Translations under genes and position numbers: made by a program | Notes under the pieces: model-generated | Told to the model about the DNA's origin: nothing | Database searches by the model: none | What the model saw: only the letters and a program-made list of their open reading frames with translations | From: Alphaproteobacteria bacterium | Lineage (GTDB): Bacteria > Pseudomonadota > Alphaproteobacteria > Rs-D84 | DNA length: 64,000 bases | Direction: 5' to 3' | Assembly (NCBI GenBank): GCA_017629245.1 | Contig: JAGBXO010000007.1 | Span: forward strand, 14,100-78,099 | Part shown: positions 13,611-59,404 of the stretch, in pieces | How the letters are laid out: each line of letters opens with the position of its first letter | Numbering within the stretch: the first letter of the stretch is position 1

Positions 13611-13638
13611 TTGACAAAATATGCTTCGGGGATATAAT
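13611..13638 (+). promoter_or_regulatory. Consensus sigma70 promoter (TTGACA-N16-TATAAT) for the nucleotidyltransferase/phosphoesterase pair
   Basis: TTGACA at 13611-13616 and TATAAT at 13633-13638 with a 16-nt spacer. The predicted TSS is ~13645, only 2-3 nt before the ATG at 13648, implying a leaderless or very short leader. Confidence 0.55.
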
Positions 13639-13647
13639 CAATCCACA

Positions 13648-14580: not shown

Positions 14581-14585
14581 TACAC

Positions 14586-15110
14586 ATGGCAAAATTTGTA
14601 TTCTCTGATCCGCATTTTAATTCTGAATCTATCATAAGAAATGGTCAGCGTCCATTTGTGAATATTGCTGAAATGAACGCAAAACTGATAGAAAATTATA
14701 ATTCTGTTGTTTCCAAACAAGATATATGTTATTGGCTGGGCGATATTATGTATGGTGCAACCCCTGACAAAGTGAAAAAGATTCTACAACAAATGCGTGG
14801 TCGCAAATATCTTATTATGGGCAATCACGACCGTGGACATTCAGAACATTGGTGGTTATCGGCTGGGTTTGACCGCGTTTATTCACATCCAATATATGAT
14901 GCAGAAAATTATATAATGCTGTCGCACGAACCATTGCCAGAATTTGGCAACCTGCCAAACATTGCGAACATTCATGGTCATATTCATATCCAAGATTACG
15001 ATTTCCCAGACCACGCACATTGCATAAATGTATGTGTTGAAAAAACGGATTACAAACCTGTACCATTAATCAATCCGTTTATTACCCAATCGCGCAAATT
15101 TTCACGCTAA
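14586..15110 (+). CDS. Calcineurin-like metallophosphoesterase (MPP superfamily)
   Basis: All MPP motifs in order: SDPHF (DxH), LGDIMYG (GD), MGNHD (GNHD), SHEP, IHGHIH (GHxH). A GGTGA RBS lies 5 nt upstream. A GTG at 14577 would overlap the NTase stop as GTGA. Confidence 0.75.
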   Translation: MAKFVFSDPHFNSESIIRNGQRPFVNIAEMNAKLIENYNSVVSKQDICYWLGDIMYGATPDKVKKILQQMRGRKYLIMGNHDRGHSEHWWLSAGFDRVYSHPIYDAENYIMLSHEPLPEFGNLPNIANIHGHIHIQDYDFPDHAHCINVCVEKTDYKPVPLINPFITQSRKFSR

Positions 15111-17271: not shown

Positions 17272-20200
17272 CTATTGGTTATCATTCACCACAGAATACT
17301 TAGTATTATTATACTTCACCTTCAGTGGGCCCGATAACGTTGTACTCATATTACCATAGAACATCTTCTCGCCAACTTTCAGATGCAACAGTGGCGATAT
17401 CCCCGTGCGCTTTTCACTGCGCAGATATATTACATTATCACCTGCATGCAACTTGCGTCCACAGTCGCCGGCCTCGTTCGCGCACAGCCCCGCGCCACAT
17501 GTCACCAGACCTGTTGCACATGCCGTACGGGTCAGGCTGTCCGCCCCCGACCAGTATCCACTTTCAACATCCCGACATACATTCGCCAACAAATCTGACG
17601 ATGTTTTGTATGTAAAGTCTTGCGTGGCACTGGTACTATCATTAAACTGTTTATTGTAATACCCACCATTACATGTCAAGTCTGGCTTATTTACCCAACA
17701 GCCTTTACCATCACCCTTTACGCCATATGTGTCCGCACTCGCATCAACATAACACGAATACATAGTCAGATTCCCATCAGCTATTGATGCATTTTTAAAG
17801 CTTGCCTGACATCCTGCGCGAACTGTGTGATTCCCGGCCTCGTTGCTAGTATTCCAGTATCCATACCCCGATGCACCCGACACAGTCGGACATGGTTCAC
17901 ATTTACTCATACCTTCCTGGTCTGCATATGTCGCATCTGTACAAGCATCACAGCTGGATAATTCTCCATATGTCACTGGATGTGCTTCCTTGGCATAGCC
18001 CAACGCGCATTTACCACTGGCACTGCTTTCTTTGGCAACTTTAACATACTTGCCGCCCAGAACATTCATTGTACACTGTGATTCCAGGCTGTATCCTGTT
18101 GTACCATCACGATATCCCGGCGGGCATTCTTCTCTGCCACCCGCAGTATTACCGTATAACTTTATACCGCCCGGACAGTAATAACCGGCAGAACACGTGA
18201 CAAATTCTTGGTCTCCTTCTATCTCAACATAATTACCAGGAGTTGTTATTGCATAACACTGTTCATATTTATCCGCCCCCACATCAGATTTATTGAAAAC
18301 ATTGTCACCACTTTCATCACATGGCGTGCGTCCACCGGTTGTTGGGTGTGTATCAGATGATGTGCCACCATAGTATACCTTGACCGAACCTGGGCAATAT
18401 CCATCCGCTGCACACGAAACCAGACCCGCACCCGCATTCGCAACATAATTCGTGGCTGTTGTATTCAGGTAACAGTCATTAACCGTTGTTGCGCCCGCCG
18501 CAGACAACGTGTACTTACTATTTGTACCACTTGAACATGTCGCGCATGCATTGCTGTTCTTATAGTAGTTTGCAGAACATCCCGCTGTTGCCTTAATCGT
18601 GCACAGATTGGTCATCTTGTTATCTGTGCCCCAAACCGGCGTTTCCCAACCTGTTGATTCCACCCCCGTCGCGTTAGAGCAGGTTGCTGTACACGATGTC
18701 GCACCATCCGCACTGTTCGTCTTGCCCCCAGCACATGCTTTACACGCGCTTTGTCCTGTTGTATCAGTGTACGAACCCATCACACATTTCGTCTGGTTGC
18801 TGGCCCCTGTTGTACCGACAAAGTACCCCGCATCCGCCAAATTACATGCAACTGTATTACCCAATGCAACTGTAGTTGAGGCCTTGTATGTACCTGTCGC
18901 ACACGCCTTTGGTGCTGCTGATAACACAACCAGTTCGCCCGTTGGATTTTCAGTGTTCCGTGTTTGGAAATCCGCATCCTGGAATACTGTTGTATAATCC
19001 TGGTTGTTTTCCGATACAGAAATCGCCATATTCTGGTACACACGTCCGTCGGTGTACATCGCAAATTTAATAGACCCCAGATTTTGTACCGAACCCAAAT
19101 CCCAAACCAACGTTGACCCCTGGGCATACGTTTCCCCTGTTGTGCCACGTGTCCAGGAACCATCTGTTGCCGCCGTCAACTTTGAACCTGTTGTGCCACC
19201 TTTGCCAGACAACAGATTCGTACCTGTTCCATCTGCAGATGCAAACGCCTGGATTTCCAGCATGTGTGTATCAGAGTTTTTTGCACTGCCACTTGATGTC
19301 ACTTTGATATAACGCGCTGCAATCGTAGTAGCACCAACCATTTTACCTTGTACTGTCTGTACACAATCAGATTTTGCATCGTGACCACTGGCCGATGTAC
19401 TGGTCGATGTATATCCATCCATACAGTAATTAACAGGTGATATATTGCCCCAATTAACCAAATGTGCACCTGTGAACCAACCACCCGCTGGCGATGTACA
19501 TGCTGCATTCGCGCTAACAACACGCGTACCCGCTGCACAAGACGCCTGACACTGGCTTACATTTGTCTTACCAGTTTGCGTGCCACCACGATAGTTAGAA
19601 TCGCATATGCCACATGTTTGACCCTCGATACATGTGCCAGTTGCAGATGTGCCACCACCGTTGGAGTAGTATGCCACCGCTAATTTGCCACATGTTTTAC
19701 CACTGCCGGTACAGCCGTTACCGTTGGCGGTTGGTGTTTTTGTTGTTCCGCCACCTGTTGAATAATAACCGCCATCAACTATGCCGCATGTATTTGCTGT
19801 GCCATCAGATTTTTCCCCAACACAACTGTTTGACAGATATGGGGCGGCTTTTTTCGCACCACCTGTCGAATAATAACCTGCCTCAATCAGACCGCAACTT
19901 TTGCCATCAATACATGTGCCATTTGCCGTTGTTCCACCACCTGTTGCATAAAACCCACCAGCAATTGCGCCACATTCATAACCACTGATGCATGTACCAT
20001 TGGGCGACGTTCCACCACCAGTGCTGTAATAACCTGCCGCAACTGGGGACATAGATGAACCGTCGGTTGTATAATATCCCGCAGGTACCACACCTCCTTT
20101 ATAGTCACCGGAACAAACACCACCAATGTCATCTATACCACATCCGTCATTATAATATCCAGACTGAATCGCCCCACATTCACATCCTGCCGCGCAATCG

Positions 20201-23200
20201 ACATCTTGAGTTGCAGGGTATTTATATGTTGCACCACATGTCGAATAATAGCCACTTGATATAACACCGCAATAGTCATAATCGCCACCCATACCGATAC
20301 AATCAGACTTGGCAGTTGGTGTCGCAGTTTTGGCGCCTGAAACAGACCAATAGCCCGCATTAATTAAACCACATGTATTACCCGAACCGACACAATCAGA
20401 AGCCGTTGGTTTAGCCACGGTTGCGCCACCTGTTGCGAAATACCCACCGTCGACCTGGCCACTACCTGTGCTGGATGTTGCGCCTGCTGCCCCCCAATAA
20501 CCTGGTTCAACGGTACCACATTGCGTTGTGCTATCATTTACGCAACCACTACCACGCGTGACCGGTGTTGGTGATGTACCACCACCCATGTTATAATACC
20601 CCGCATTAACCTTGCCATTACCCATAGGCATTGTTGCACCACCGGTTGAGTAATATCCCGCATCAACCATGCCGCTACCCTTCTGGGTTGTTGCTCCGGC
20701 TTCGCCCCAATAGCCCGCTGCAATTCTTCCGCCCTGATTTTGAGAACATGAACTCTGGATTCCTCCCTCTGGATCTGCACCACAACCATTGTTCCAATAT
20801 CCTGCAGAAACCTTACCTGAACCCTTTGAACTCGTTGCGCCGTATCCGCCCCAATAACCCGCATCAATTATTCCTCCTCTATTGGATGAAGAACAAGAAG
20901 TATCGATTCCACCTTTTGGATTTATGCCACAACCGTCATTCCAATATCCTGGCAAAAGCTGGCCACAACCCTTATCTTTCAGGCATCCATTACCCGGACT
21001 GGTTGGTCTTGCAGCTGTTCCACCACCGGTTGAGTAAAATCCTGCATCAACCACGCCACTACCAGCCGGTGTTGTTGCGCCGGCTTCACCCCAATGCCCC
21101 GGACTAATAATTCCTCCTGCATACTCCGAACCACAAGCATCACTAATTCTCCCATCTGGATTTGTACCACAACCATTATTCCAATATCCTGCAGAAACCT
21201 TACCACAGCCATTAGTGCCCTCGAGAACACATCCATCTCCAGCTGTTGTTGGTGTTGCCGATGTTCCCCCTCCAGTGTTCCAATATCCTGCATCAATCGC
21301 GCCACATTCTTGTCCGTCCAGACATCCATTCCCCGCCTCGTACGGGTTTTCCAATGTTCCGCCACCATTGGAATAAAATCCTGCCAAAACCATGCCGCTA
21401 CCCTTCGAGGTTGTTGCGCCGGCTTCGCCCCAATAGCCCGCCTCAATTGTTCCGCACTCAAAGCCCAGCTTTGTGTTACATACACCTTCTGCATACATAC
21501 CTGCACCGGTTGAATAATACCCCGCTTTAACCTTGCCACAGCTTTGCCCCGGCAGGCATCCATTGCCCGCACCGGTTGGTGTCAACGACGTTCCACCGCT
21601 ATTGGAATAGTATCCTGCTGCAACACTGCCACATTCTTCGCCTTCTGCACAACCTGCACCAATCGCCGATGAACCACCACCAGTTGAATATGCGCCACCC
21701 GCAACCATTCCACATGCTTTAAATGAGCTATTCGACATACCTGGTTCCTCATAGTATCCTGTACAATCTGTACCATGAACCGGTGTTGCGGTTGTCATAC
21801 CAGTAACCCTACTGTAATATCCCGGCGCCAACTTTCCGCATTCCTGACCGGCCAGGCATCCGTTCCCCGCCGCGGTTGGTGTCGCCGACGTTCCACCGCC
21901 ATTGGAATAGTACCCAAGCCCAACTGCACCAGAACCCTTGCTGGATGTACCGGCACCTGCGGACCAATATCCCGGCTCAATCATACCGCATTCTTGCTGG
22001 CTGCGACATCCCATGCGAACAGTGCTTATCCCCTGATTTAACAAATCAACATTGAACCCCAGGGCAGTACTGTTTGTTACATCTAAATTCCCCGGTGCAG
22101 GCAATACACCACCACCCGTCGAATAATATCCTGGCAAAATCGAACCGCAGACATTTTTGCGTGGCACTTCAGTACTTCCCCAGATATCAGTTCCAATATA
22201 ACCAACACAATCTGCCGATGTTGGGTTTGATTTTATCGCCCCCCCGGTCGAGAAGTATCCTGCCTCAAGCTCGCCGCATGTTCCACCTGCTACGCAGTCT
22301 TCATTTGAATGTGGTTGGGCTGTTTTCGCACCACCGGTTGAAAAACAACCTGCCGCTACAGCACCTTCACCAGTTGAGCTTTTTCCGCCACCGCTTGACC
22401 AATAACCCGGGGCAACCTTGCCACAATTTTCGCCTGCAATACACCCGTTTCCACTGGCGGTTGGACGTGGATGTGTACCACCACCGGTTGAATAATAACC
22501 TGCATCAACAAAACCACAGCCCATAGAGTTTGCAACACCATCAATCGTTACCAGTTCACAGTCTGCACTCATATAACTTGGTGATTTCTTTTTCATCCCC
22601 GGTTGCACACTGAAATATCCCGCAGCCAATGGCCCACAACCATTGCCACCGACACAGCCCGTACCTTCTTTTGGTGTTGATGTTGTCGCACCACCAGCTG
22701 AATAGTATCCAACACTGACCAAACCATCAATCCCCAAATTATCAGCATATGTACCACTGCCACAAGATGTAAACCCCGTACGCCCGCTACAGTACGAACC
22801 AGCAGGGCATACCTGTGCATCACGATACAACATACTCCGGGTACTATCATCACAATAGGTATCTGAATACCTTGTCGTCAAATAATAACCTGCATTTGGG
22901 CGCGTATAATACAAATTGCCGTTTTTATCATATTTTTCGGTGCTGGTGTTATATTGCACAGCTTCTATTATAAAATAACCACGCGAGTTTGTATAAGAAT
23001 AAGTTGCCCTACAAGATTCAATCGTTGTCCCCCCAACCAAAGAACTCCAATCTGTTTGTTGTGCCGAACCTAATACCAAATTCTCGTTTGGATAAACATA
23101 GGCACCGTGTGTCAGGTTATCATAACTGGTCATCTTATGATCCGCAACCGTCGGACATGCCGTACATTCCACAACATCCGATGCAGCAACGGTCACTTCG

Positions 23201-24390
23201 CCGTGATATGTCCCGGGCACGCATTGGGTATTTGTTCTGACCCTGACGGGTACATGTTGCATCACGGCCGGTGCTGCCGAGGTAGAACTAACCAGGCCAT
23301 TAAATACAGTTGTCCATGTTGTGGCATCGGCCGATATTTCGATTACGATCTTGCGCGTAATATTACCCCCCAACGCAAATAAAATATTTGAAATCGGCAC
23401 AACCCCACTTGTTCTAAACATCGCCATATATCCCTGGGCAGATGTTGCACTTACTACAGCAGTAGTACCCAAATTACCATCTATGGCATTACCTGCACTT
23501 ATCATAGAAGAATTTGCACTTAATCCCTGTGCTACACCATCGGAAATCACTTGAATTTCTGCCAATGGAAACGCACCTTGCACAGAACTGATTCGGATAT
23601 ATTGTGCATCTGGTTCGGCGACCACAGAACTGTATCCACCCGGCACCGTCACCAAACAATCGGCCGCCGAATCATGTAAACTAGGTACCATGCCACGCAT
23701 ATCAGAACCGTATGGACAATAGGTAATTGATGAAATCCTACCATAGTAAACATTATGTACTTTCGAACTGTACCATGACATACCTATGGTCGAGTCACTT
23801 CCCGTAGTACAGGCGTTACCAGGGCTAAACACAGCCGTACCAGGCGCACAAGTTGCATAACAATCCGATTGTGAATCTGAACCCGCCGCACTGTTTCCAT
23901 AACCTGTTGGGCATGCAGTTGGGCTGCTACTGCCTTCTGGACAGTATGAATTTGCAGGACAAGCACCCGTAATTCCACGATCTGTTGATGTTGCAACTTC
24001 GTCTGTTGTATCTGTTGGCGCATCGCAAACTTTCCCCGCAGGACACTTAGCGCATGTTGTAGTGCCCGCCATGATATATTCCCCAGCGGCGCAATGAATC
24101 CCCGCCCTTACCGGACACGCTTGACCGCCTAAACATTTATACCCATCTGGACACTTTAAACATGTTTTGCCAACGACAGGCGTGGCCATAGTTCCCGTCC
24201 ACGCCGACGAATCGGTGCCGCATGCCTCAAGATAATAGCCTTCGACACACGAAGTATACGTCTCAACCGTGTTACAGGTATACCCCGCCGCCATCAAATT
24301 ACCGGTAAAAAGCAAAACGAATAAAAACGCGCAAAACCGCAGAAATCTAAACATTCTTCCCACTTTCTTTTTCTCTTTTGTATTTATCAT
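17272..24390 (-). CDS. Giant (~2370 aa) secreted cysteine-rich surface protein with two F5/8-type-C (discoidin)-like domains and ~30 tandem Gly-rich repeats
   Basis: Signal peptide (MINTKEKKKVGRMFRFLRFCAFLFVLLFTGNLMA). The maximal ORF extends to 24474; likely starts are 24390 or 24354. Two discoidin-like regions are present (…AGNAIDGNLGTTAV… and …ATDGSWTRGTTGETYAQGSTLVWDLG…). A long array of ~35-aa repeats of form AGY(Y/W)S-GGG-S-TPT--GNGC--G--CG-h-AGY follows. Cys-rich modules (CxxC.AG.Y., TTPGNYV...C.AGYYCPGG) are shared with the 38733..45632 protein. Confidence 0.6.
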   Translation of the reverse strand: MINTKEKKKVGRMFRFLRFCAFLFVLLFTGNLMAAGYTCNTVETYTSCVEGYYLEACGTDSSAWTGTMATPVVGKTCLKCPDGYKCLGGQACPVRAGIHCAAGEYIMAGTTTCAKCPAGKVCDAPTDTTDEVATSTDRGITGACPANSYCPEGSSSPTACPTGYGNSAAGSDSQSDCYATCAPGTAVFSPGNACTTGSDSTIGMSWYSSKVHNVYYGRISSITYCPYGSDMRGMVPSLHDSAADCLVTVPGGYSSVVAEPDAQYIRISSVQGAFPLAEIQVISDGVAQGLSANSSMISAGNAIDGNLGTTAVVSATSAQGYMAMFRTSGVVPISNILFALGGNITRKIVIEISADATTWTTVFNGLVSSTSAAPAVMQHVPVRVRTNTQCVPGTYHGEVTVAASDVVECTACPTVADHKMTSYDNLTHGAYVYPNENLVLGSAQQTDWSSLVGGTTIESCRATYSYTNSRGYFIIEAVQYNTSTEKYDKNGNLYYTRPNAGYYLTTRYSDTYCDDSTRSMLYRDAQVCPAGSYCSGRTGFTSCGSGTYADNLGIDGLVSVGYYSAGGATTSTPKEGTGCVGGNGCGPLAAGYFSVQPGMKKKSPSYMSADCELVTIDGVANSMGCGFVDAGYYSTGGGTHPRPTASGNGCIAGENCGKVAPGYWSSGGGKSSTGEGAVAAGCFSTGGAKTAQPHSNEDCVAGGTCGELEAGYFSTGGAIKSNPTSADCVGYIGTDIWGSTEVPRKNVCGSILPGYYSTGGGVLPAPGNLDVTNSTALGFNVDLLNQGISTVRMGCRSQQECGMIEPGYWSAGAGTSSKGSGAVGLGYYSNGGGTSATPTAAGNGCLAGQECGKLAPGYYSRVTGMTTATPVHGTDCTGYYEEPGMSNSSFKACGMVAGGAYSTGGGSSAIGAGCAEGEECGSVAAGYYSNSGGTSLTPTGAGNGCLPGQSCGKVKAGYYSTGAGMYAEGVCNTKLGFECGTIEAGYWGEAGATTSKGSGMVLAGFYSNGGGTLENPYEAGNGCLDGQECGAIDAGYWNTGGGTSATPTTAGDGCVLEGTNGCGKVSAGYWNNGCGTNPDGRISDACGSEYAGGIISPGHWGEAGATTPAGSGVVDAGFYSTGGGTAARPTSPGNGCLKDKGCGQLLPGYWNDGCGINPKGGIDTSCSSSNRGGIIDAGYWGGYGATSSKGSGKVSAGYWNNGCGADPEGGIQSSCSQNQGGRIAAGYWGEAGATTQKGSGMVDAGYYSTGGATMPMGNGKVNAGYYNMGGGTSPTPVTRGSGCVNDSTTQCGTVEPGYWGAAGATSSTGSGQVDGGYFATGGATVAKPTASDCVGSGNTCGLINAGYWSVSGAKTATPTAKSDCIGMGGDYDYCGVISSGYYSTCGATYKYPATQDVDCAAGCECGAIQSGYYNDGCGIDDIGGVCSGDYKGGVVPAGYYTTDGSSMSPVAAGYYSTGGGTSPNGTCISGYECGAIAGGFYATGGGTTANGTCIDGKSCGLIEAGYYSTGGAKKAAPYLSNSCVGEKSDGTANTCGIVDGGYYSTGGGTTKTPTANGNGCTGSGKTCGKLAVAYYSNGGGTSATGTCIEGQTCGICDSNYRGGTQTGKTNVSQCQASCAAGTRVVSANAACTSPAGGWFTGAHLVNWGNISPVNYCMDGYTSTSTSASGHDAKSDCVQTVQGKMVGATTIAARYIKVTSSGSAKNSDTHMLEIQAFASADGTGTNLLSGKGGTTGSKLTAATDGSWTRGTTGETYAQGSTLVWDLGSVQNLGSIKFAMYTDGRVYQNMAISVSENNQDYTTVFQDADFQTRNTENPTGELVVLSAAPKACATGTYKASTTVALGNTVACNLADAGYFVGTTGASNQTKCVMGSYTDTTGQSACKACAGGKTNSADGATSCTATCSNATGVESTGWETPVWGTDNKMTNLCTIKATAGCSANYYKNSNACATCSSGTNSKYTLSAAGATTVNDCYLNTTATNYVANAGAGLVSCAADGYCPGSVKVYYGGTSSDTHPTTGGRTPCDESGDNVFNKSDVGADKYEQCYAITTPGNYVEIEGDQEFVTCSAGYYCPGGIKLYGNTAGGREECPPGYRDGTTGYSLESQCTMNVLGGKYVKVAKESSASGKCALGYAKEAHPVTYGELSSCDACTDATYADQEGMSKCEPCPTVSGASGYGYWNTSNEAGNHTVRAGCQASFKNASIADGNLTMYSCYVDASADTYGVKGDGKGCWVNKPDLTCNGGYYNKQFNDSTSATQDFTYKTSSDLLANVCRDVESGYWSGADSLTRTACATGLVTCGAGLCANEAGDCGRKLHAGDNVIYLRSEKRTGISPLLHLKVGEKMFYGNMSTTLSGPLKVKYNNTKYSVVNDNQ
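19700..22800 (-). repeat. Intragenic tandem repeat array (~100-nt period, Gly/Cys-rich ~33-35 aa units) inside the giant protein gene
   Basis: Repeated peptide units are visible in the translation (AGYYSTGGGTS.TPT..GNGC..G..CG...AGYW, GYWGEAGATT.KGSG.V.AGYY...). Boundaries are approximate. Confidence 0.55.
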
Positions 24391-24476
24391 AGAAAAACCA
24401 GCATTTTTGCACAAGTAAAAAATTCCCCAATCACAGAAATTATTTTTTTGACAGTATGTTTTACTATCCGCCAATC

Positions 24477-24500
24477 AAAAAAAAATCCCCTTGCGGGGAC
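24477..24500 (-). terminator. Rho-independent terminator of gpmI
   Basis: Minus strand: TCCCC-gcaa-GGGGA followed by T9. Confidence 0.5.
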
Positions 24501-24503
24501 TTG

Positions 24504-26092: not shown

Positions 26093-26512
26093 ATGAGCGG
26101 CAAACCATTTAGACCAAATTCAATTGATGAACATATTGGCCAGCGTATGCAACTGCGCCGCATTATGATGGGCATGTCCCAGAAAGATTTGGCAAAAATC
26201 TGTGGGGTCACATTTCAACAGATTCAAAAATATGAATCCGCAGGCAATCGCATATCTGCATCGCGCCTGTTTGAACTAAGTGCCGCACTGGAAACCCCGG
26301 TTTCATTTTTCTTTGCTGGCTTGCCTGGTCATATCGAGCGCGAACCACGCAACGGTCACTTGCCAAAAACACATTTGCGCGACAACCGTCCATCTGATCC
26401 ATTGGGAAAAAATGAATCATTACAATTAATAAATCTGTATTGGAAATTACCAAATGACGAGCAACGCGAAATGGTAATGAAAATGTTGCGCGCCCTAAAT
26501 GGCCAGGAATAG
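26093..26512 (+). CDS. XRE-family helix-turn-helix transcriptional regulator
   Basis: HTH_3 motif (IGQRMQLRRIMMGMSQKDLAKICGVTFQQIQKYESAGNRISASRLFELSAALETPVSFFF). Confidence 0.75.
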   Translation: MSGKPFRPNSIDEHIGQRMQLRRIMMGMSQKDLAKICGVTFQQIQKYESAGNRISASRLFELSAALETPVSFFFAGLPGHIEREPRNGHLPKTHLRDNRPSDPLGKNESLQLINLYWKLPNDEQREMVMKMLRALNGQE

Positions 26513-26744: not shown

Positions 26745-26768
26745 CCCGCCACATGGGCGGGATTTTTC
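26745..26768. terminator. Bidirectional terminator immediately after the 26768..27964 gene
   Basis: CCCGCC-acatg-GGCGGG hairpin; a T-run on the plus strand overlaps the minus-strand stop codon and an A-run precedes it. Confidence 0.5.
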
Positions 26769-27964
26769 TATTCCGTTTGTTGATCAGCTTTTTTTCCTGT
26801 GACACATTCTTTATATTCATCTGGCGATGTTTTGGCCCAACATTGCCCATCTACATTATTTTTATACGAAACCTTATTTCGACTTTTGCCATACTGTAAA
26901 TCTAAATGTGAATACCCAATGGCAGTCTTACAAACTCCCGTTTTCACATCAAAATATTGCCCCGTCTGATTACAGACCACACATGTTCCATCATTTGGAT
27001 TTGGTCCGCCCTTAACACTGGTTGCACAATCTTGACACTCATCGGTTTTACCTGCCGCAGGAAATGCTTTGGTTTGATCTCTACAGACATAAATATAACA
27101 ATTGCGTTCCTTATCCTTTCGTTTTATATGCAGCGAAGAATTATACCCACTTTCTGGAAAGTTTCCACAGAACACAGGATTTATATCTTCGATTGCTTCT
27201 GCTGTTGCAGGCACACAATCTGTATTTGTATCGTTCGGCAAATATCCCTGTTTACATAACAATTTTCTTGTATTCGACACCAAATCTGCACGTTGAACCC
27301 ATGAATTAATACCCTTCCAGCCATCCCACTGACAACCAACCTGAACCGGTGCGGCCAGAATACCATTCTTCAAAAACTTCACAGCCCCTAAAATAATATC
27401 TTGTTCTCCATGATCGTTCCACACCCCAGCATACCAATAATAATTCCAGGTATTAAAACCATAAATATTCGATTCATAATTACTTATACGGCCACCAGAT
27501 GTCTTTTTCGTGATACCACTACGCAAAGAAGAAATAACATCGCCAACATCTGTTGTTTCCACAGAAAACATTTTTTCACATCCTGGACCAGAATATCCCT
27601 TTTCGCATAACCATACACATTTGCTGTCTTGCCAACCATTTGGACGATGATACAGTGTCCAAGACCAATGATTCTTTCTTGCGTTTGCACACTGAATTTG
27701 ATAGGGGCAAAAAAATCCACCATGTTCCGCTATCTGTTCTGCAACAACCGCGACAATTGCGCCTTCATCACCATAAGTGCCTATAGATGCAAAACCTAAT
27801 GAGCCATCAATAATAAATTCACCAGCGCTTCCCATACTGTTGACGTCTTTTTGTCCCGAATATCCCCATGCTGTGGCCATGTTACTATCTACATGATTTA
27901 TCGCCCAACCAGCACTTGTCCCAAGCGTCGCAAAGAATACTGAAGCATACAAGTATTTTTTCAT
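26768..27964 (-). CDS. Secreted cysteine-rich protein (398 aa) with EGF-like CxC..GY.G..C motif
   Basis: Signal peptide MKKYLYASVFFATLGTSAGWA. It carries 20+ Cys, including CVWLCEKGYSGPGCE which resembles the EGF consensus. No other known domain. Confidence 0.5.
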   Translation of the reverse strand: MKKYLYASVFFATLGTSAGWAINHVDSNMATAWGYSGQKDVNSMGSAGEFIIDGSLGFASIGTYGDEGAIVAVVAEQIAEHGGFFCPYQIQCANARKNHWSWTLYHRPNGWQDSKCVWLCEKGYSGPGCEKMFSVETTDVGDVISSLRSGITKKTSGGRISNYESNIYGFNTWNYYWYAGVWNDHGEQDIILGAVKFLKNGILAAPVQVGCQWDGWKGINSWVQRADLVSNTRKLLCKQGYLPNDTNTDCVPATAEAIEDINPVFCGNFPESGYNSSLHIKRKDKERNCYIYVCRDQTKAFPAAGKTDECQDCATSVKGGPNPNDGTCVVCNQTGQYFDVKTGVCKTAIGYSHLDLQYGKSRNKVSYKNNVDGQCWAKTSPDEYKECVTGKKADQQTE

Positions 27965-38732: not shown

Positions 38733-41700
38733 TTACCAAGACATATACCCTGGTTCACACGTGCGTTCACACTTCTTGCGTGATGCATTCCACTTTCGCG
38801 ATCCTGTTTCATCTGAATAGGTGTCGCATATCAGAACACATTCGTTGTTCTCCAGTGTGTACAATTCACCTTCATACATACAGGTCGCAATCTCACAACC
38901 TTCAACATAACTGCTAGCCGCCAACTCACCACCCGCGCTGTACATATTGTTGCAGCGTCCACACTGCTTCCACAGTTCATTTGTTTGGCTGCGGTCATTC
39001 GTATAGCCTGGGTCACACTTGGTTGCGACACAATCGCCCCATGTATTCTTCTTGTGATTCCATTCGCGTACACCAATACCATGTTCTAATTCACAGACCT
39101 GTTCATCTGCCTGACATGTATTTGCCCCCAGATGATAACCATCCGCACATTCTGTGATTACACATTCACCAAACGCTTGCTTTGAGGCATCCCAGACACG
39201 CGTCGCCGCAACAGCATTAGGAACAGAACATTCTACGGTATCAACTTCGCACGCCTGGCCATTTGGATGGAATCCACTGACACACGACTCTACAACACAG
39301 TTGCCACCATCTTTCTTGTATGACAATGCATTTTCGCGTGCACATGCCTGACATTTACCACCAACCATTTCATAGTTATAGTTACATGATCTTTCTACAC
39401 ATGTTCCATTAACTATGTCGCACGGATTCTTGGTAACAGACATACCGTCAAATCTGCACTGTACCGGATAATTTTCAGTACCAGACACAGGAATCGCTGT
39501 TCCATAAGTGATATCATACGCATCACATTTCAGATAGCAGTCCGAAATCTCTGACGAGCCCGCCGGTGCGAACTTATGTGTTCCCTTTGTCAGATCTGAA
39601 CACAGCTGTGGTTTGCCGCGTTCAATATCCGGTGTACAGATATTATTTGCTGGACATACCTTACATACACCATCACTCAAAGTGTACCCTGGACGACACA
39701 ATGTTATTTCACATGTATCTGTACCGTTTGCATAGTAGTCACGACCGAGCATTTCTTGGGCACTGCTTGCCAAAGAACAACTTGTATAGCACTGTTGTGC
39801 ACTTTCTGCCCCAGAATCAGATAACGCATACCCATCTGGACAGACTTCACGTCCACCTGTGCCAACACGCATTATCTTGACACCACCTGCGCAATATCCA
39901 CCTGTCGCACAATCAACCATTCCCATACCAGCCGTTGCAACATACTTACCCGCTGTTGTAATCAGATAACAATTATCAACAGACCCATTCTGCGCTGCAG
40001 ACTTTGTATAAACACCATCTGTCAATTCAGAACATTTATGTGGCGCGCCATTATCGTTGGCAGGGTCGCACACATTATCCGCAGGACATACCTTACATGC
40101 GCCACCCACAACTGTAAAACCAGCCTCACATAATGTAGCCTCACATGTATCAGCAACATCTGCGCCATAGTAATCTTTACCACTCATCGCTATCGCATTT
40201 TCCGTCAACGCACAACGCTGATAACATTGTGTTTCTGCACTTGCGCCAACAACTGATGAATAGCCCATACCAAACGCTGAACATGCCGAATTACCACCTG
40301 TGGCTGTATACACAACCTTTACACCACCCAAACAGTAATCGCCAACCTTACATGCTACTTCGCCTTGACCCGCAACCGCAACATACTTACCTGGTGTAGT
40401 TATCGTATAACAGCCATCTATTGACGAAGTGTTCTCTAACGACAAGGTATACTTACCATTGGTCAATTCAGAACATGTATGCGGTTTGCCACCATCATAG
40501 TTTGGATCGCACACGCTATTGGCCGGACAGCTGCCACATGTACCATTCGACAAGACAAATCCTGTCTCACACTGCACCGCCTCACATGTATCAACACCTG
40601 TTCCATAGAAGTCTTTTCCAGTCATTTGTGTAGCATGTGAATACATTGCACAGTTTGTATAGCACTGATTTTTCTCAGACGCCCCCGTTCCAGACATTGC
40701 ATAATCCAATGGGCACGCTTCACGACCACCTGTGCCTGTGCGATTTACATCAACGCCACCCGCACAGTATCCACCTGCCAGACAGTCAACTTCGCCTTGA
40801 CCCGCAGTCGCAACATACTTGCCCGCCGTCGTGGTCAGATAACAATTATCAACTGTACCTGTCTGTGCCGCAGACTTTGTATAAACTCCACCTGTCAACT
40901 CAGAACATTTATGTGGCGCGCCATTATCGTTGGCAGGGTCGCACACATTATCCGCAGGACATACCTTACATGCGCCACCTGCGACTGTAAAACCAGCCTC
41001 ACATAATGTAGCCACACATGTATCCGCAACATCTGCGCCATAGTAATCTTTACCACTCATCGCTATCGCATTTTCCGTCAACGCACAACTTTCTGTATAG
41101 CACATATCCGCGGTCTTTGTACCAGCAGCCGACATACTATATTTACCACCAGCCAGTGTCTTACACGCTGTATTTCCACCAACACCACTTACCATAACCT
41201 TGGTGCCACCCGGACAGAAATCACCGGCCTTACATTCAACTTCACCCTTGCCAGCGGTCGCAACATACTTACCTGCGGTCGTAATCAGATAACATTCTGA
41301 CGCACCAGCTTCCGAAGTATATCCCGCAGGGCAGGTTACACAACTGCTTTTCTGACCATAATATACATTATGTTCGGTCTTGTATGTTCCTGCATTACAT
41401 GTTGCAAACGCATCACCATTCCAGTACTTACCATCCGCAACCACCACATAACACTTGTCAGGTGTACTTGCCCCACTGGCTGTCACGCCACTTTGCCATG
41501 CAACATCATCTGACAAATCAGCACACGATAAGTTACCACCAGAATTGCCATACGATACCTTTATATCACCCGGACAATAATAAGGCACAACACAGGTCTT
41601 AACAACGTTATCCATAATGTATTTGCCTGCCACTGTCAAAGTATAGCAATCATCAATACTATCGCTATTTGCTGCACTGCTTGCAAACACTCCATCTGTT

Positions 41701-44700
41701 TCGGTTGCACAACTACGCTTCGTACCATTGCTACAATAACTGCCCGCTTCACAAGCTGTACAACTGCTGGTATTCCCATAAGAAACCAAAACCGCATCCG
41801 ATGTATAGTTTCCTGCTGGACAAACCGTCATTTCCGCCCCTTTTGCCGTAGCCAGATAAGAGCCCTTAGGTACAGAAATCTGACATTGTGATTCATCACT
41901 GTACCCTGTACCACCATCATCATAGCCACTTGGACATTCGGTACGACAACCTGCAACACCAATTGTTACCTTGCCTTCACCAGGACAATAATACCCCTTT
42001 GGACATGTCACAAAAGAAGTCCCATTATAGTACATACCCGGCTGACACATCTCAACATTTATTACCCATTTTGCGTACAAGGTCTTATTTGCCGTGCACC
42101 CGCCCGCTGGGATTGATGATATCGCACTGCCTGCGGTTGCAACATTATCATACCAACCTTCAAAGCGGTAATCCTCACGCGAGATCTGGGCTGCCGTTGG
42201 CAATACGATTACCCCCGTTTCAACAGTACATTGTGAAACCTGGGTATAGTTACTACCTATCTTGCCCCCATTTGTTTCCAATGTTAAACCGTATACGACC
42301 GCATCACAAACAGGATTATATGCACCATTATTCTGCAAATTATCGTAATTAGACTTACATTCCGTTGCATAAGTACAAACCCCTAACGGTGCTGTCAAAT
42401 TACATTTTGCACCATTACCCGCAGCACAGGCTGTACACGCCTTCCACACAGGATACAGCGTAACCGTTGTATTGTTAACCTGTGTCAAATTAACAACCTT
42501 CTGCCCATCGGTATATTCCGGCGTTGCTGCATTTGGCTCTGTCGCCCATCCCATGAACTGACGATCATTCGTTGCCGAAGTAAAGGCATTCGGAGTCAAA
42601 TTCAATGGTTCATCACAGGTATGAGTAACACTTTCCATAACCCCTGAAGCACCTGCGGCATTGTATTTAACTGTATATGTATTCACATTCCACCATGCAT
42701 ACAATGTAGTATCTGCGGATACATCTGGCGCATCCAATATAGCCCCCATTGCATCTATCACACGAACACCACCTTCCAATGCCGTTCTCTTGGTATAATA
42801 TCCTGCGAAGGTATAACATGGACGCACCGGAACCGCAACCTTAGAAATCTTATCCGTTGCTGCAGCATTACTATACCAGCCAGTATTATACTTCTCGTAT
42901 ATAGTATTATTTGCTGTTTCGCCACCATTGACATCCAATGTAAAGGTGTAAACATGTGGTGTACACAGTTCCTCTGGCGCAGACGCCGAACCATCTGTCG
43001 GATCTATATCAGCACTCTCATTCTTATCATAGCCCGTATTACATGTGAACGATGAATCAGGGCAAACATATGCAGCTGCAGAACCAGGCAACGGCTTATC
43101 AGTACCATAGAACAAATATCCACCGCCTAATACAGAGTGAGTTGAATTATACGTACATGTTCCCATTTCTTCCAATGGACAGATCGGTGCAGTACATGGC
43201 AAATCAACAGACTTAAAGCACGCTGTTGCCCCTGTATTAGAATCTGCAACATATTTTACCAACGAAGGATACGATGTTTTGAACGAACCATCGCCCAACG
43301 TCGTACATGATACACAACTACCATCTTCAATATCTCCTGTTGGAGTATAGTATGTGCCAGCCTTACAAGATACCTTGATTATATCACAATAGGTACTATC
43401 AGAACTTCCTGGTGCAGCCACACACATATCAGGATTTGCTTTATAAGTCACTCCCCTAAATCTAAGATCATTGTATTGGCAATTGTTCGCGCCCTTGGCT
43501 TCACATTCTGCATCATCATGTGAACACCAGCATTTCGGTACTTCTTTATAACATTGTCCTTCTTCAGATGCGCCAGCAACACTATTTGGATAATCTGACG
43601 GACATTCTGCGACCGGACATGTTTCAGATGTTTCCGTGCTCCATTTTCCACCGGCACAATACTTGCCTGCAGGACATTCCTCTACTTGACCAGACTCTTT
43701 GTTATAGTATGTACCTGGTGCACATTCACCATCTGCCATCCATTGTGCAAACAATGTAATATCACTATCGATATCCCACTTTGCAGGTACTCCATTCATA
43801 TTGTAATACTGTACACCACCTGTCTGTGCAGAGTAGTACCCCTTGAATATAAAGTCTGTCTTCGTTGGCATAACAGCATCTGGCAACACCTCGCCAAATG
43901 TTGCAATCACGGACGCGGTACCACCGACACCACCATTTTTATCAAATGTCACAGTATATGTATTAGCAGTCCACTTAGCATACAATTTGTAATCTGACAA
44001 ACATGCACCCTTTGCAATCACTGTAATCGGACTTCCTGTAAAATCAGAATTCTGATACCAACCACCAAATGTATAGCCCGTTTTTGTTGGCTTTGGCAGG
44101 GTTATATCCGCCGTTTCAACAGTACATGAGCTTGGTGTTACACTGCTGCCTCCAACAATTGTGCCACCATTTGCATTCATTGATATATTGTATTTTACAA
44201 CCGTACAGGTTTCTGCACCTGTTTGCCCATTCGTTGAATATCCATCCATACATGTTGCACAACTATCTTTGTCTCCATACAAAACAGGATGTTCTGGCAA
44301 TACAGTATTTTCTGGGCAGACCTTAACTTCTGCTGCATCAAAATCAAAATAATGCCCCGCCTGGATAGATGTTACACAATTGCTAGGAGTAGACAGACCT
44401 ATTTTACCATGTCCATTATCCTTCCATTCTAAGCCAGCATACTCTAACTGAGCGCATGTTTTCGCGCCACCTGTTGAACCATAATACACTGTCACACCAC
44501 CCGGACAATAATACCCAGCACTACAGGTAACTTGTTTTGCATTCTCTAAAGCAACATAATTACCCGGCGTTGTTACCAAATAACACTGATTTTCTGCAGT
44601 TGCTCCTTTGTTGCTGGTATACCCAATCGCACACGAATATGCGACACCTGCAATGCAATAACTGCCTTCAGGACATATTGCAGGTGCACTCACACCCGAC

Positions 44701-45632
44701 ACACAAACTTCCCCATTGGCACAGGCATACATTCCAGCCGCCTCAGCACCAACATATTCTTCCCCACCTGGGCAGTAATTACCTGCTTCGCACACAAGAA
44801 CTTCTCTGCCGTTCCAATAATAACCAGACGCCAACACCCCAGATTCTGGCACACACGATGCAGAACCTGCCTCTGAAGTATATCCTGCCTCACACGGTGT
44901 ACAAGCTGTCCCCGTTGTACCATATGCAACCAATCCCCCTTCACTGTAAGTGCCCGCTTCACATGTGCCAACAGAAATAGCTCCATCAACCCAATCTGCC
45001 GACTTCAAATAACTGCCTGCCGGCATAACAAATTCGCATTCGGCAATCGATACTGCAACAACATCACCATATGTTTTCAGCTGATAATCACCAATGGCAG
45101 GACAGGCGACCGCTCCATTGCCAATCGCCCCATCTTCTGTACGAAGATCAGCATAAATTTTACCACCCGGATAATAATACAAATGCCCTTCATTCGAGCT
45201 AACCCCTGTTGCAAAAGCGTTTTTCGCAACATCATAATATTGACCAGCCCCAACATTAGCAACAAAGCAATCTCCCTCCTCATCACTTTGCAATACACTA
45301 GAAGGGAAGTCTGTTGGACATTTTGTCGCTACAACCGCACCAGAAATACAATAAGAACCAGCTGGACACTCCATCTGTGCACATCCATCCTTCATATTAC
45401 CTTCACCAGGGCAGTAATAACCCGCCGGACACGGTTTTGCAACATTACCTTCATACGCATATCCTGCATCACAGCCATTGGCAGAATACAGTGCCGTAAA
45501 GGTCACATCTTTGGTATAGTTAAAGTTTTCTATCACTTCTCCAGGCAAATATGTCACAGCGAACGATTCGGATGCGCCAAAAACAGACGCAAAAAAAGCC
45601 AGAATTCCTGATATTAAGTGCTTCAATTTCAT
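38733..45632 (-). CDS. Giant (2299 aa) secreted cysteine-rich surface protein with Listeria-Bacteroides (Flg_new) repeats and tandem ~145-aa Cys-rich modules
   Basis: Clean signal peptide MKLKHLISGILAFFASVFGASESFA. At least 6 Flg_new-type repeats (YTVTFDKNGG…GYTFGGWY…LYAKW). Repeated modules …CY..TTxGKYVA.AGxGEVxCxxGxYCxGG… are paralogous to the 17272..24390 protein. Confidence 0.65.
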   Translation of the reverse strand: MKLKHLISGILAFFASVFGASESFAVTYLPGEVIENFNYTKDVTFTALYSANGCDAGYAYEGNVAKPCPAGYYCPGEGNMKDGCAQMECPAGSYCISGAVVATKCPTDFPSSVLQSDEEGDCFVANVGAGQYYDVAKNAFATGVSSNEGHLYYYPGGKIYADLRTEDGAIGNGAVACPAIGDYQLKTYGDVVAVSIAECEFVMPAGSYLKSADWVDGAISVGTCEAGTYSEGGLVAYGTTGTACTPCEAGYTSEAGSASCVPESGVLASGYYWNGREVLVCEAGNYCPGGEEYVGAEAAGMYACANGEVCVSGVSAPAICPEGSYCIAGVAYSCAIGYTSNKGATAENQCYLVTTPGNYVALENAKQVTCSAGYYCPGGVTVYYGSTGGAKTCAQLEYAGLEWKDNGHGKIGLSTPSNCVTSIQAGHYFDFDAAEVKVCPENTVLPEHPVLYGDKDSCATCMDGYSTNGQTGAETCTVVKYNISMNANGGTIVGGSSVTPSSCTVETADITLPKPTKTGYTFGGWYQNSDFTGSPITVIAKGACLSDYKLYAKWTANTYTVTFDKNGGVGGTASVIATFGEVLPDAVMPTKTDFIFKGYYSAQTGGVQYYNMNGVPAKWDIDSDITLFAQWMADGECAPGTYYNKESGQVEECPAGKYCAGGKWSTETSETCPVAECPSDYPNSVAGASEEGQCYKEVPKCWCSHDDAECEAKGANNCQYNDLRFRGVTYKANPDMCVAAPGSSDSTYCDIIKVSCKAGTYYTPTGDIEDGSCVSCTTLGDGSFKTSYPSLVKYVADSNTGATACFKSVDLPCTAPICPLEEMGTCTYNSTHSVLGGGYLFYGTDKPLPGSAAAYVCPDSSFTCNTGYDKNESADIDPTDGSASAPEELCTPHVYTFTLDVNGGETANNTIYEKYNTGWYSNAAATDKISKVAVPVRPCYTFAGYYTKRTALEGGVRVIDAMGAILDAPDVSADTTLYAWWNVNTYTVKYNAAGASGVMESVTHTCDEPLNLTPNAFTSATNDRQFMGWATEPNAATPEYTDGQKVVNLTQVNNTTVTLYPVWKACTACAAGNGAKCNLTAPLGVCTYATECKSNYDNLQNNGAYNPVCDAVVYGLTLETNGGKIGSNYTQVSQCTVETGVIVLPTAAQISREDYRFEGWYDNVATAGSAISSIPAGGCTANKTLYAKWVINVEMCQPGMYYNGTSFVTCPKGYYCPGEGKVTIGVAGCRTECPSGYDDGGTGYSDESQCQISVPKGSYLATAKGAEMTVCPAGNYTSDAVLVSYGNTSSCTACEAGSYCSNGTKRSCATETDGVFASSAANSDSIDDCYTLTVAGKYIMDNVVKTCVVPYYCPGDIKVSYGNSGGNLSCADLSDDVAWQSGVTASGASTPDKCYVVVADGKYWNGDAFATCNAGTYKTEHNVYYGQKSSCVTCPAGYTSEAGASECYLITTAGKYVATAGKGEVECKAGDFCPGGTKVMVSGVGGNTACKTLAGGKYSMSAAGTKTADMCYTESCALTENAIAMSGKDYYGADVADTCVATLCEAGFTVAGGACKVCPADNVCDPANDNGAPHKCSELTGGVYTKSAAQTGTVDNCYLTTTAGKYVATAGQGEVDCLAGGYCAGGVDVNRTGTGGREACPLDYAMSGTGASEKNQCYTNCAMYSHATQMTGKDFYGTGVDTCEAVQCETGFVLSNGTCGSCPANSVCDPNYDGGKPHTCSELTNGKYTLSLENTSSIDGCYTITTPGKYVAVAGQGEVACKVGDYCLGGVKVVYTATGGNSACSAFGMGYSSVVGASAETQCYQRCALTENAIAMSGKDYYGADVADTCEATLCEAGFTVVGGACKVCPADNVCDPANDNGAPHKCSELTDGVYTKSAAQNGSVDNCYLITTAGKYVATAGMGMVDCATGGYCAGGVKIMRVGTGGREVCPDGYALSDSGAESAQQCYTSCSLASSAQEMLGRDYYANGTDTCEITLCRPGYTLSDGVCKVCPANNICTPDIERGKPQLCSDLTKGTHKFAPAGSSEISDCYLKCDAYDITYGTAIPVSGTENYPVQCRFDGMSVTKNPCDIVNGTCVERSCNYNYEMVGGKCQACARENALSYKKDGGNCVVESCVSGFHPNGQACEVDTVECSVPNAVAATRVWDASKQAFGECVITECADGYHLGANTCQADEQVCELEHGIGVREWNHKKNTWGDCVATKCDPGYTNDRSQTNELWKQCGRCNNMYSAGGELAASSYVEGCEIATCMYEGELYTLENNECVLICDTYSDETGSRKWNASRKKCERTCEPGYMSW
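39925..41090 (-). repeat. Near-identical ~290-bp direct DNA repeats (approx. 39925-40215 and 40800-41090) within the giant gene, separated by a diverged copy
   Basis: Long exact matches, e.g. cagaacatttatgtggcgcgccattatcgttggcagggtcgcacacattatccgcaggacataccttacatgcgccacc and catctgcgccatagtaatctttaccactcatcgctatcgcattttccgtcaacgcacaac, occur in both copies. They encode CALTENAIAMSGKDYYGADVADTC…KVCPADNVCDPANDNGAPHKCSELT… twice. Confidence 0.6.
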
Positions 45633-59370: not shown

Positions 59371-59404
59371 AAAAAAGCGCCCAACAGGGCGCCTCTTTTT
59401 TTTT
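59371..59404. terminator. Bidirectional terminator between thyA and the 59403..61787 gene
   Basis: GCGCCC-aaca-GGGCGC hairpin flanked by A6 and T9. Confidence 0.55.

Follow-up and report, generated by a model that had tools for sequence, protein, structure and literature searches.

A giant cysteine-rich protein with discoidin domains, probably an exposed and variable envelope protein, in a gut alphaproteobacterium of the Rs-D84 group

Which function could be served by a giant Cys-rich protein whose gene takes up 7 kb of a bacterial chromosome? This question is raised by a 64-kb stretch of contig JAGBXO010000007.1 (assembly GCA_017629245.1), hereafter the window, and by the giant gene that it carries on its minus strand. 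The 2,360-aa product is a 100% match to NCBI entry J6R52_02405, a "hypothetical protein" of an "Alphaproteobacteria bacterium" metagenome-assembled genome (MAG). An earlier note, made from the sequence alone, had described a giant surface protein with discoidin-like domains and a tandem array. Our analysis indicates that the gene probably encodes a Sec-exported, disulfide-rich, rod-like envelope protein, likely an exposed and variable adhesin or coat fibre. Of this reading, the firm parts are the types of domain, the protein family, the pattern of conservation, the mosaicism of the alleles and the contrast in substitution rates with flanking genes.

An uninterrupted minus-strand open reading frame (ORF) is found at 17272..24474, as first noted. 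However, its mechanical start, TTG 24474, is too far 5', so that the product of ~2370-2400 aa given at first was over-extended. The true start is most likely ATG 24354, as judged from the terminator of the iPGM gene lying upstream and from a conserved promoter and leader that end at this very ATG. An alternative ATG (MINTKEKKK...) falls within the putative -10 box. The position of the iPGM terminator also makes the giant gene a separate transcription unit. The putative promoter consists, in order, of a T-tract, TTGTGC (24414-24409), 17 nt, TATGAT (24391-24386) and the leader AAAGAGAAAAAGAAAGTGGGAAGA, which is purine-rich and contains a Shine-Dalgarno-like GGGAAG. The same element aligns 5' of 22 family genes from various loci and genomes, with the consensus TTTTTTaCTTG, ~16 nt, tTTTTtcTAtgAT, ~6 nt, AAAGAGAAAAAGAAAGTGGGAAGA, ATG (besides the window, L010, L011, L015, L019, L021, L022, L038, L046, L049, L052, L054, L064, L066, L067, L070, L074-L076, L079, L081 and L082). 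A generic sigma-70 scan of the window did not list it because its -35 box agrees at 3/6 positions only. Such a common promoter and leader would imply co-regulation or high expression of the family genes.

The protein begins with what reads as a signal peptide, in agreement with the earlier proposal. The segment MFRFLRFCAFLFVLLFTGNLMA preceding AGY is organised like such peptides, with an n-region, an h-region and AXA, and the pattern M(S/F)RFLR, a hydrophobic stretch, then xxA before AGY(T/S)C, is kept across the family. The composition of the protein is unusual, with 16.5% Gly, 10.8% Thr, 6.1% Tyr and 5.3% Cys. One of its 125 Cys lies in the signal peptide, which leaves 124 in the mature chain.

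Two regions of the mature chain, D1 and D2 (Table 1), are related to discoidin domains. D2 scores 30.2 bits against Pfam F5_F8_type_C (PF00754; cut-off 28.2), with aa 1725-1806 matched, and 27.3 bits against the NedA-like galactose-binding model PF22633, just under the 27.8 cut-off. D1, which contains ...SAGNAIDGNLGTTAV..., reaches only 18.7 bits alone (E=0.002), under the Pfam cut-off. However, the block made of a Cys-rich linker and D1 aligns with the block made of the Cys-rich linker and D2 over 249 columns (BLASTP E=2e-18), and this points to an internal duplication, with D1 as a paralogue of D2. In addition, all top matches of a D1 profile built from homologues are solved CBM32 modules (best 5zu6, E=5e-4, and 7d29, 1.4e-3; also 4zz5, 4txw and 4a42), with marginal E-values. 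These modules come from alginate lyases (AlyQ), a chitosanase, a hyaluronoglucosaminidase and a GH89 enzyme. Hence, the two discoidin segments proposed at first are supported, D2 by a PF00754 score above the cut-off and D1 weakly, through paralogy and CBM32 matches. The protein thus appears to hold two domains of the discoidin/CBM32 type, D1 being weakly supported, which is consistent with glycan binding. As compared with the CBM32 and F5/8 type C modules of bacterial glycoside hydrolases and lyases, which they resemble by these scores, D1 and D2 come without a catalytic domain and are set within a Cys-rich rod; D1 is also highly divergent and fast-evolving. Between D1 and the array lies a module, with ...YNTSTEKYD...AGYYLTTRYSDTYC..., that recurs among homologues.

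The central array spans 1,036 aa. It is real and of about the predicted size (~1000 aa), but it comprises 36 units, not ~30, and these are not of a uniform ~35 aa. Anchored on xGY[YWF], the units measure 15-53 aa, with modes at 31 and 19. Three types can be distinguished: type a (19 aa, no Cys, xGYWGEAGATTxKGSGxVx), type b (~31 aa, with a C-x5-6-C pair, AGYYSTGGGTSATPTAAGNGCxxGxxCGxxx) and type c (~30 aa, with Cys placed differently, AGYWNNGCGxNPxGGIxxxCSxxxxGGxIx). At the DNA level, at least 19 copies of a 45-nt core are found, with 60-82% identity and spacings that are always multiples of 3, so the units look like old copies. Tandem Repeats Finder did not see the array and reported just two trivial 12-13-nt arrays, and no stretch of 25 aa or longer is exactly duplicated in the protein of the window allele. 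A slipped-strand contingency locus was ruled out by the 60-82% unit identity and by the lack of near-identical DNA tandem repeats. No silent donor cassettes or inverted repeats were found within the window. The array had no sequence match in Pfam or the PDB, and a search of a set of 5.8 billion proteins returned six short fragments only, which are uninformative. The structure check asked for in the earlier note gave a confident model: AlphaFold2 run on aa 972-1164 with a family alignment predicts an all-beta array with 3-residue strands (pLDDT 92, pTM 0.86). The idea that the array is a degenerate form of the Cys-rich modules yielded, with hhalign, a 17-column motif only (9.7% probability). 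None of the described repeat families matches the Gly/Tyr array, and the model suggests a possible new repeat fold.

The remainder of the body is made of Cys-rich modules. Those next to the C-terminus follow the type CY..TT.G.YV....C.AG.YCPGG..VYYG..GG...C. Ephrin_rec_like (PF07699) is the sole Cys-module family matched in the Pfam scan, with 20 bits in two stretches, below the cut-off of 23.1; several homologues have precomputed PF07699 matches. The chain ends in a C-terminal domain (CTD) with the pattern R..C.TGL.T.G.G...NEA.DCGR.LH.G...YLRS..RT.P.L.VK.G...FYG....L.VK....YSV.ND.Q. The CTD had no Pfam, NCBIfam or PDB match. An AlphaFold2 model of the last 233 aa (family alignment; pLDDT 86, pTM 0.80) shows Cys-rich modules and, after them, a terminal domain of six strands. 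The structural neighbours of the models are weak ones: Chlamydomonas mastigoneme Mst1, ELAPOR1, EphA2, EphB2, CaSR and members of the TNFR family. The Sushi-like domains of Mst1 resemble the Cys-rich domains of ephrin receptors and form a disulfide-ladder filament (PMC10602792). For both models, the best neighbours are the Cys-rich domains of ephrin receptors, TNFR and CaSR and the Mst1 rod (PDB 8tx1; PMC10602792), all extracellular rods of stacked beta-hairpins and disulfide ladders. In contrast to Eph, TNFR and Mst1, the array units of the giant protein have 0-1 disulfide-capable Cys pair per 19-31 aa and are dominated by Gly and Tyr.

How widespread is this protein? A CTD profile, which gives 127.9 bits with the window protein, was searched against 1.84 billion representative proteins. 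It matched 634 clusters (50% identity clusters) at E≤1e-3, of which 421 at ≤1e-10. The domain is nearly always at the extreme C-terminus, in proteins of up to 5,143 aa. The proteins listed are mostly Cys-rich, typically 4-8%, and those with a complete N-terminus begin with a common signal peptide and an AGY(T/S)C..(K)YTSC..GYY module. Because its carriers are Cys-rich and share their N-terminus, the CTD is the mark of one protein family and no general sorting tag. Whole-protein comparison gave 59 homologues of 1,356-4,073 aa, 55 of which have the motif DCGR[KIV]L, mostly 61-63 aa from the C-terminus. The window protein has all the family parts: the signal peptide and N-terminal module, the Cys-rich body and the terminal DCGR..YLRS..YSV..D domain. 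A family of huge surface-type Cys-rich proteins, as first supposed, therefore exists. The earlier note had missed the CTD, the N-terminal module and the promoter and leader as the parts that define it. The literature on Enterousia, on Rs-D84, on giant Cys-rich proteins and on bacterial Ephrin_rec_like yielded no published description of this family. Giant variable surface proteins of modular build are a known kind of protein; the CTD, the N-terminal module, the promoter and leader and the Gly/Tyr array are undescribed.

A scan of GTDB, with one genome per species and alignment of the C-terminus, gave 140 confirmed loci. Nearly all belong to Candidatus Enterousia or unclassified Alphaproteobacteria MAGs from human, ruminant, deer, yak and chicken guts; a few small contigs binned elsewhere are probably mis-binned. 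Several genomes carry at least two family members. In addition, one Alphaproteobacteria MAG has two CTD-bearing genes head to tail (L045, 2-2767 and 2867-4879), an instance of local tandem expansion. Two chromosomal positions recur: the iPGM-DnaK interval, where the giant gene is found, and the region upstream of SecA. The neighbours (DnaK, iPGM, RsmH, DnaE, SecA, RuvB, ArgRS, trigger factor, TsaD, XseA and UvrD) are housekeeping genes, and the window is a piece of bacterial chromosome of the Ca. Enterousia / Rs-D84 group. A phage origin, suggested by PHROG polymerase and Hsp70 matches, was ruled out by these cellular neighbours, and the giant gene had no nucleotide or protein match in phage collections.

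We then asked how the giant protein differs between strains. Two syntenic loci with the order DnaE-RsmH-...-iPGM-giant-DnaK were compared with the window, L081 (protein P0002) and L082 (protein P0003); all compared sequences come from MAGs. Versus L081, the seven flanking proteins are 97.0-99.4% identical, whereas the giant protein is 63% identical with ~300 residues of indels. For the seven flanking genes pooled (3,429 codons), the non-synonymous rate (dN) is 0.0072 and the synonymous rate (dS) 0.147, giving a ratio (omega) of 0.049. For the colinear codons 1-1200 of the giant gene, dN is 0.074, dS 0.100 and omega 0.74 (bootstrap confidence interval (CI) 0.58-0.98). At similar dS, the giant gene thus has ~10x the dN of its flanks, and its 7-kb reading frame is intact in every allele. 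Along the protein, the ratio is 0.83 in the N-terminal and Cys-rich modules (aa 23-247). In the D1 region, dN is 0.12-0.13 and dS ~0.08, with an omega of 1.5-1.7 (CI 0.8-5.2) that is not significantly above 1. In the CTD, dN is 0.019 and dS 0.224; judged from this omega of 0.08, the domain is under strong purifying selection.

The giant protein is also a mosaic. In 60-aa windows, the closest match is P0002 over residues 1-1320 (73-95%) and P0003 over residues 1081-1980 (mostly 93-100%); over the last 260 residues, P0002, P0004 and P0007 come closest. At the DNA level, segment 18329-20508 is 95.0% identical to L082 and 76-87% to L081, whereas its flanks are ~91% identical to L082 and 94-96% to L081. 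This incongruence between the segment and its flanks indicates recombination. Recent segmental duplication is seen as well, in other alleles: P0002 contains an exact duplication of 135 aa (1239-1373 = 1481-1615), and other family members have several exact internal duplications. The comparison of repeat copy numbers proposed in the earlier note gave 19-42 units of the expanded array among the syntenic iPGM-DnaK alleles and at one further locus, and 0-10 in other members.

These data bear on whether the protein is exposed at all. It could instead be a structural protein of the periplasm or envelope that is not exposed, its strain differences reflecting relaxed constraint and assembly noise. The lack of any outer-membrane translocation signature, the overall omega below 1 and the origin of all data from MAGs would fit this explanation. 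Yet relaxed constraint and noise sit badly with a dN 10x that of the flanks at similar dS and a 7-kb frame kept in every allele, with a CTD under strong purifying selection (omega 0.08), with recombination blocks whose DNA is phylogenetically incongruent in MAGs that were sampled separately, and with the presence of glycan-binding domain types. Given the rate contrast and the intact frames, we regard this explanation as very improbable and the least likely of those considered.

How would such a protein reach the surface and stay there? Scans of the giant protein with Pfam and NCBIfam found no autotransporter barrel, RTX repeats, type IX secretion system (T9SS) CTD, LPXTG or PEP-CTERM, and scans with Pfam, NCBIfam and PHROGs found no known sorting or secretion domain. 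A type V autotransporter was rejected since the C-terminal barrel of ~250-300 aa is lacking; the CTD has 85 aa, six short modelled strands and no Pfam or NCBIfam match. An adhesin of the RTX/LapA type, exported by a type I secretion system (T1SS), was rejected on the presence of a Sec-type signal peptide and the lack of an RTX match. T9SS cargo was rejected as well, as there is no match to a Por_Secre_tail CTD (TIGR04183/PF18962-type) and the organism is an alphaproteobacterium. Finally, ORF clusters of 82 loci yielded only SecA, DnaE, RsmH, iPGM and DnaK synteny, with no transporter as a conserved neighbour.

Giant modular adhesins are known from bacteria, variant-specific surface proteins (VSPs) from Giardia and Cys-rich surface antigens from ciliates. 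The giant protein resembles giant modular bacterial adhesins, including those of ultra-small host-dependent lineages, in its size (several thousand residues in that class), its repeat-rich extended layout, its lectin-type domains (discoidin, Listeria-Bacteroides repeats), its large share of a small genome and its presumed contact with a partner. A survey of giant genes is available for comparison (bioRxiv 10.1101/2023.11.21.568195). Unlike these adhesins, the giant protein combines an N-terminal Sec signal, ~5% Cys and its own CTD, N-terminal module and promoter, and it comes without RTX/T1SS, autotransporter, LPXTG or transmembrane anchor. With Giardia VSPs and ciliate Cys-rich antigens it shares CXXC/ephrin-receptor-like Cys modules, a variable centre, conserved termini and membership of a multigene family. 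However, it has neither the C-terminal transmembrane helix nor the CRGKA tail of a Giardia VSP and ends in a predicted folded beta domain (...YSVVNDNQ); a VSP of the Giardia type was rejected on this C-terminus, ...KVKYNNTKYSVVNDNQ, which has no hydrophobic helix. Moreover, the variation seen here is between strains. The term "eukaryote-like" used at first is apt for the type of module, but no eukaryotic homologue was retrieved. GC at third codon positions (GC3) is 0.377 in the giant gene and 0.30-0.44 in its neighbours, and its synonymous codon usage matches that of the rest of the window. The raised GC of the gene is due to the second codon position (0.59), i.e. to its amino-acid content (Gly/Ala/Thr/Cys). 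The comparison of codon usage and GC that the earlier note proposed thus gives no sign of recent horizontal acquisition, and neither recent horizontal transfer nor a eukaryotic origin was retained.

Overall, the following mechanism can be proposed. The conserved promoter and leader, which are observed as an element, may drive expression, and the conserved signal peptide would direct passage through Sec. Outside the cytoplasm, the 124 Cys of the mature chain would form disulfides. According to the confident AlphaFold models, the Cys-rich modules and the 1,036-aa array of Gly/Tyr beta-hairpins may form an extended spacer. This spacer would display the two discoidin/CBM32-type domains to glycans on the surface of a partner, for which host mucus or epithelium, a protist or another microbe are candidates. 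The 85-aa CTD and the N-terminal module, by their conservation, may engage a conserved machinery for export, anchoring or assembly. The middle of the protein, probably exposed, differs among strains through recombination between alleles, through duplication of segments and through a high rate of non-synonymous change. In this scheme, we infer the localisation, the disulfide bonding, the rod shape, the glycan ligand, the identity of the partner and the function of the CTD.

Several points weigh against an exposed, variable adhesin or coat fibre. The mechanism and the localisation are predicted from sequence and structure models, and glycan binding from the type of domain. As neither a known outer-membrane export or anchor signature nor a conserved transporter neighbour was found, surface exposure in a diderm is left without a mechanism. 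D1 falls below the Pfam cut-off. An overall omega below 1 fits relaxed constraint as well as positive selection, and the omega above 1 of D1 is not significant. In addition, chimeric assembly of co-occurring strains could be the source of the mosaic pattern, or could inflate it.

A different role is conceivable for an exposed protein. It could be a protective coat or an S-layer-like fibre and not an adhesin: an abundant, protease-resistant, disulfide-cross-linked layer whose variation is driven by phage or host immunity and whose discoidins bind the glycans of its own envelope. The strong-looking promoter and leader common to the members, the two conserved termini on either side of a variable middle, the several copies per genome and the likeness of the modelled rod to disulfide-ladder filaments such as Mst1 would all suit a coat. 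The count of Cys is also of interest here. After predicted cleavage, the count is odd in 51 of the 68 complete family proteins, regardless of signal-peptide Cys, although parity tracks clades and the sequences are not independent. This could point to a conserved free Cys in the family, which would allow intermolecular disulfides. However, the count of the window protein is even (124), and self-assembly and abundance would have to be assumed. S-layer proteins are usually far smaller and Cys-poor, and CBM32-type domains typically bind foreign glycans. We hold such a coat in place of an adhesin to be unlikely.

If the protein is an adhesin, what would it bind? For the order Rs-D84, which is uncultured and includes Ca. 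Enterousia, published analyses report genomes mostly <1 Mb that lack the tricarboxylic acid (TCA) cycle, a respiratory chain, standard transporters and some glycolytic steps, and they propose that these bacteria depend on a partner, as Patescibacteria do (PMC12306168). The lineage is found in the guts of ruminants, birds, humans and termites. With the second giant gene of the window, gene B, the giant gene accounts for 13,983 nt, 21.8% of the window, in line with the ~14 kb and 22% first estimated; this makes ~14 kb of a genome reported as <1 Mb. These features, the reduced metabolism with its proposed partner dependence (PMC12306168), the range of guts and the ~14 kb of a <1-Mb genome, would suit an attachment organelle for epibiotic or parasitic life on a microbe (a bacterium or a gut protist) and not on animal tissue, with the same adhesin mechanism as above and like the giant surface proteins of ultra-small host-dependent prokaryotes. 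On the other hand, the partner would be hypothetical, and the sequence does not separate a microbial from an animal target. The lineage also lives in higher termites, which are free of flagellates, so a protist host is not required. A strictly microbial target thus seems quite unlikely to us.

The exposed, variable adhesin or coat fibre can also be placed in a broader scheme, which we put forward tentatively and consider somewhat doubtful. The family would be an undescribed lineage-specific surface-coat system of Rs-D84/Enterousia, in which a common promoter and leader, the N-terminal module and the new CTD frame a reshuffled body. The CTD could then act as a new signal for anchoring or assembly, in a diderm without known display pathways. 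Functionally, the system would be a bacterial counterpart to the variant surface proteins of protozoa, with a new Gly/Tyr beta-hairpin fold and fast-evolving CBM32 lectins that set the partner specificity.

Table 1 Features of the giant gene, its product and gene B in the window (minus strand, -)
Feature	Coordinates	Strand	Basis or remark
Intrinsic terminator of the upstream iPGM gene	24483..24502	-	Terminator scan: 8-bp stem and T-run
Family promoter and 5' leader (putative)	24355..24422	-	Read from the sequence; aligned across family genes
Coding sequence of the giant protein (most likely start)	17272..24354	-	2,360 aa and stop
Signal peptide, aa 1-22, predicted cleavage between LMA and AGY	24289..24354	-	Sequence features
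N-terminal conserved module (AGYTC..YTSC..GYY), then Cys-rich modules, aa 23-247	23614..24288	-	
D1, divergent discoidin/CBM32-like domain, aa 248-377	23224..23613	-	Paralogy with D2 and profile matches
Middle Cys-rich and beta module, aa 378-547	22714..23223	-	No Pfam match
Gly/Tyr/Cys repeat array, aa 548-1583, 36 units	19606..22713	-	
Cys-rich linker, aa 1584-1675	19330..19605	-	Homologous to the segment preceding D1
D2, discoidin (F5/8 type C) domain, aa 1676-1817	18904..19329	-	Pfam PF00754
C-terminal Cys-rich modules, aa 1818-2275	17530..18903	-	Also found in gene B
CTD, 85 aa, aa 2276-2360	17275..17529	-	Family profile
Gene B, 2,299 aa, 156 Cys	38733..45632	-	Cys-rich relative

Gene B had been called a paralog of the giant gene. 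Homologous modules are indeed present (49% identity over 93 aa, E=1e-17), but the homology is limited to modules and the architectures differ, so "paralog" was an overstatement. Gene B has four Listeria-Bacteroides repeats and no discoidin domain, Gly array or CTD. Its C-terminus (…CERTCEPGYMSW) is different, conserved and Cys-rich, and is also found in protein P0058. Its internal DNA repeats are spaced by ~432-450 nt, with a 300-nt pair at 80% identity. In the window, gene B occupies the position next to SecA, where CTD-bearing genes are found in other genomes. Protein P0093 combines a B-type N-terminus with a CTD, showing that even the termini are shuffled.

Other genes of the window deserve a brief description. 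Two genes encode secreted proteins with signal peptides and many Cys, of 846 aa (27968-30508, -) and 398 aa (26768-27964, -). Neither had a Pfam, PHROG or NCBIfam match, and the 846-aa protein opens with a low-complexity region rich in Arg and Ala. Both genes keep their synteny with the giant gene, and the identity to L081 is 97-99%; the two proteins may be envelope partners. The lone plus-strand gene in the long minus-strand run between the 398-aa gene and iPGM (26093-26512, +) encodes a small HTH_3 (XRE-type) regulator, whose position is kept in L081 and L082. An AbiEii-type nucleotidyltransferase toxin gene (13621-14580, +) overlaps by 4 nt a 177-aa ORF (14577-15110, +) with a weak likeness to metallophosphoesterases in L081; upstream on the same strand, no gene for an AbiEi antitoxin was evident. 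Further on, a 794-aa ORF without Pfam match (59403-61787, -) has an unusually high GC at the first codon position (0.645). It also contains a direct repeat of 48 nt spaced by 66 nt, and it weakly matches a spirochaete coiled-coil family. Nearly all long ORFs between ~15.1 and 51.2 kb lie on the minus strand, which amounts to a strong co-orientation of genes, and the cumulative GC skew declines steadily over ~8000-52000. The 64-kb window contains no tRNA gene and no Rfam family at the gathering threshold.

The Rs-D84/Enterousia bacteria are uncultured and widespread in human, ruminant, bird and termite guts, with genomes too reduced for independent life. The giant family is their most conspicuous candidate for an interface with a partner: it is large and multi-copy, has lectin domains and shows ~10x the non-synonymous rate of its neighbours. 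The CTD may serve as a bait for the anchoring or export machinery, the promoter as a marker of family expression, and the locus for strain typing.

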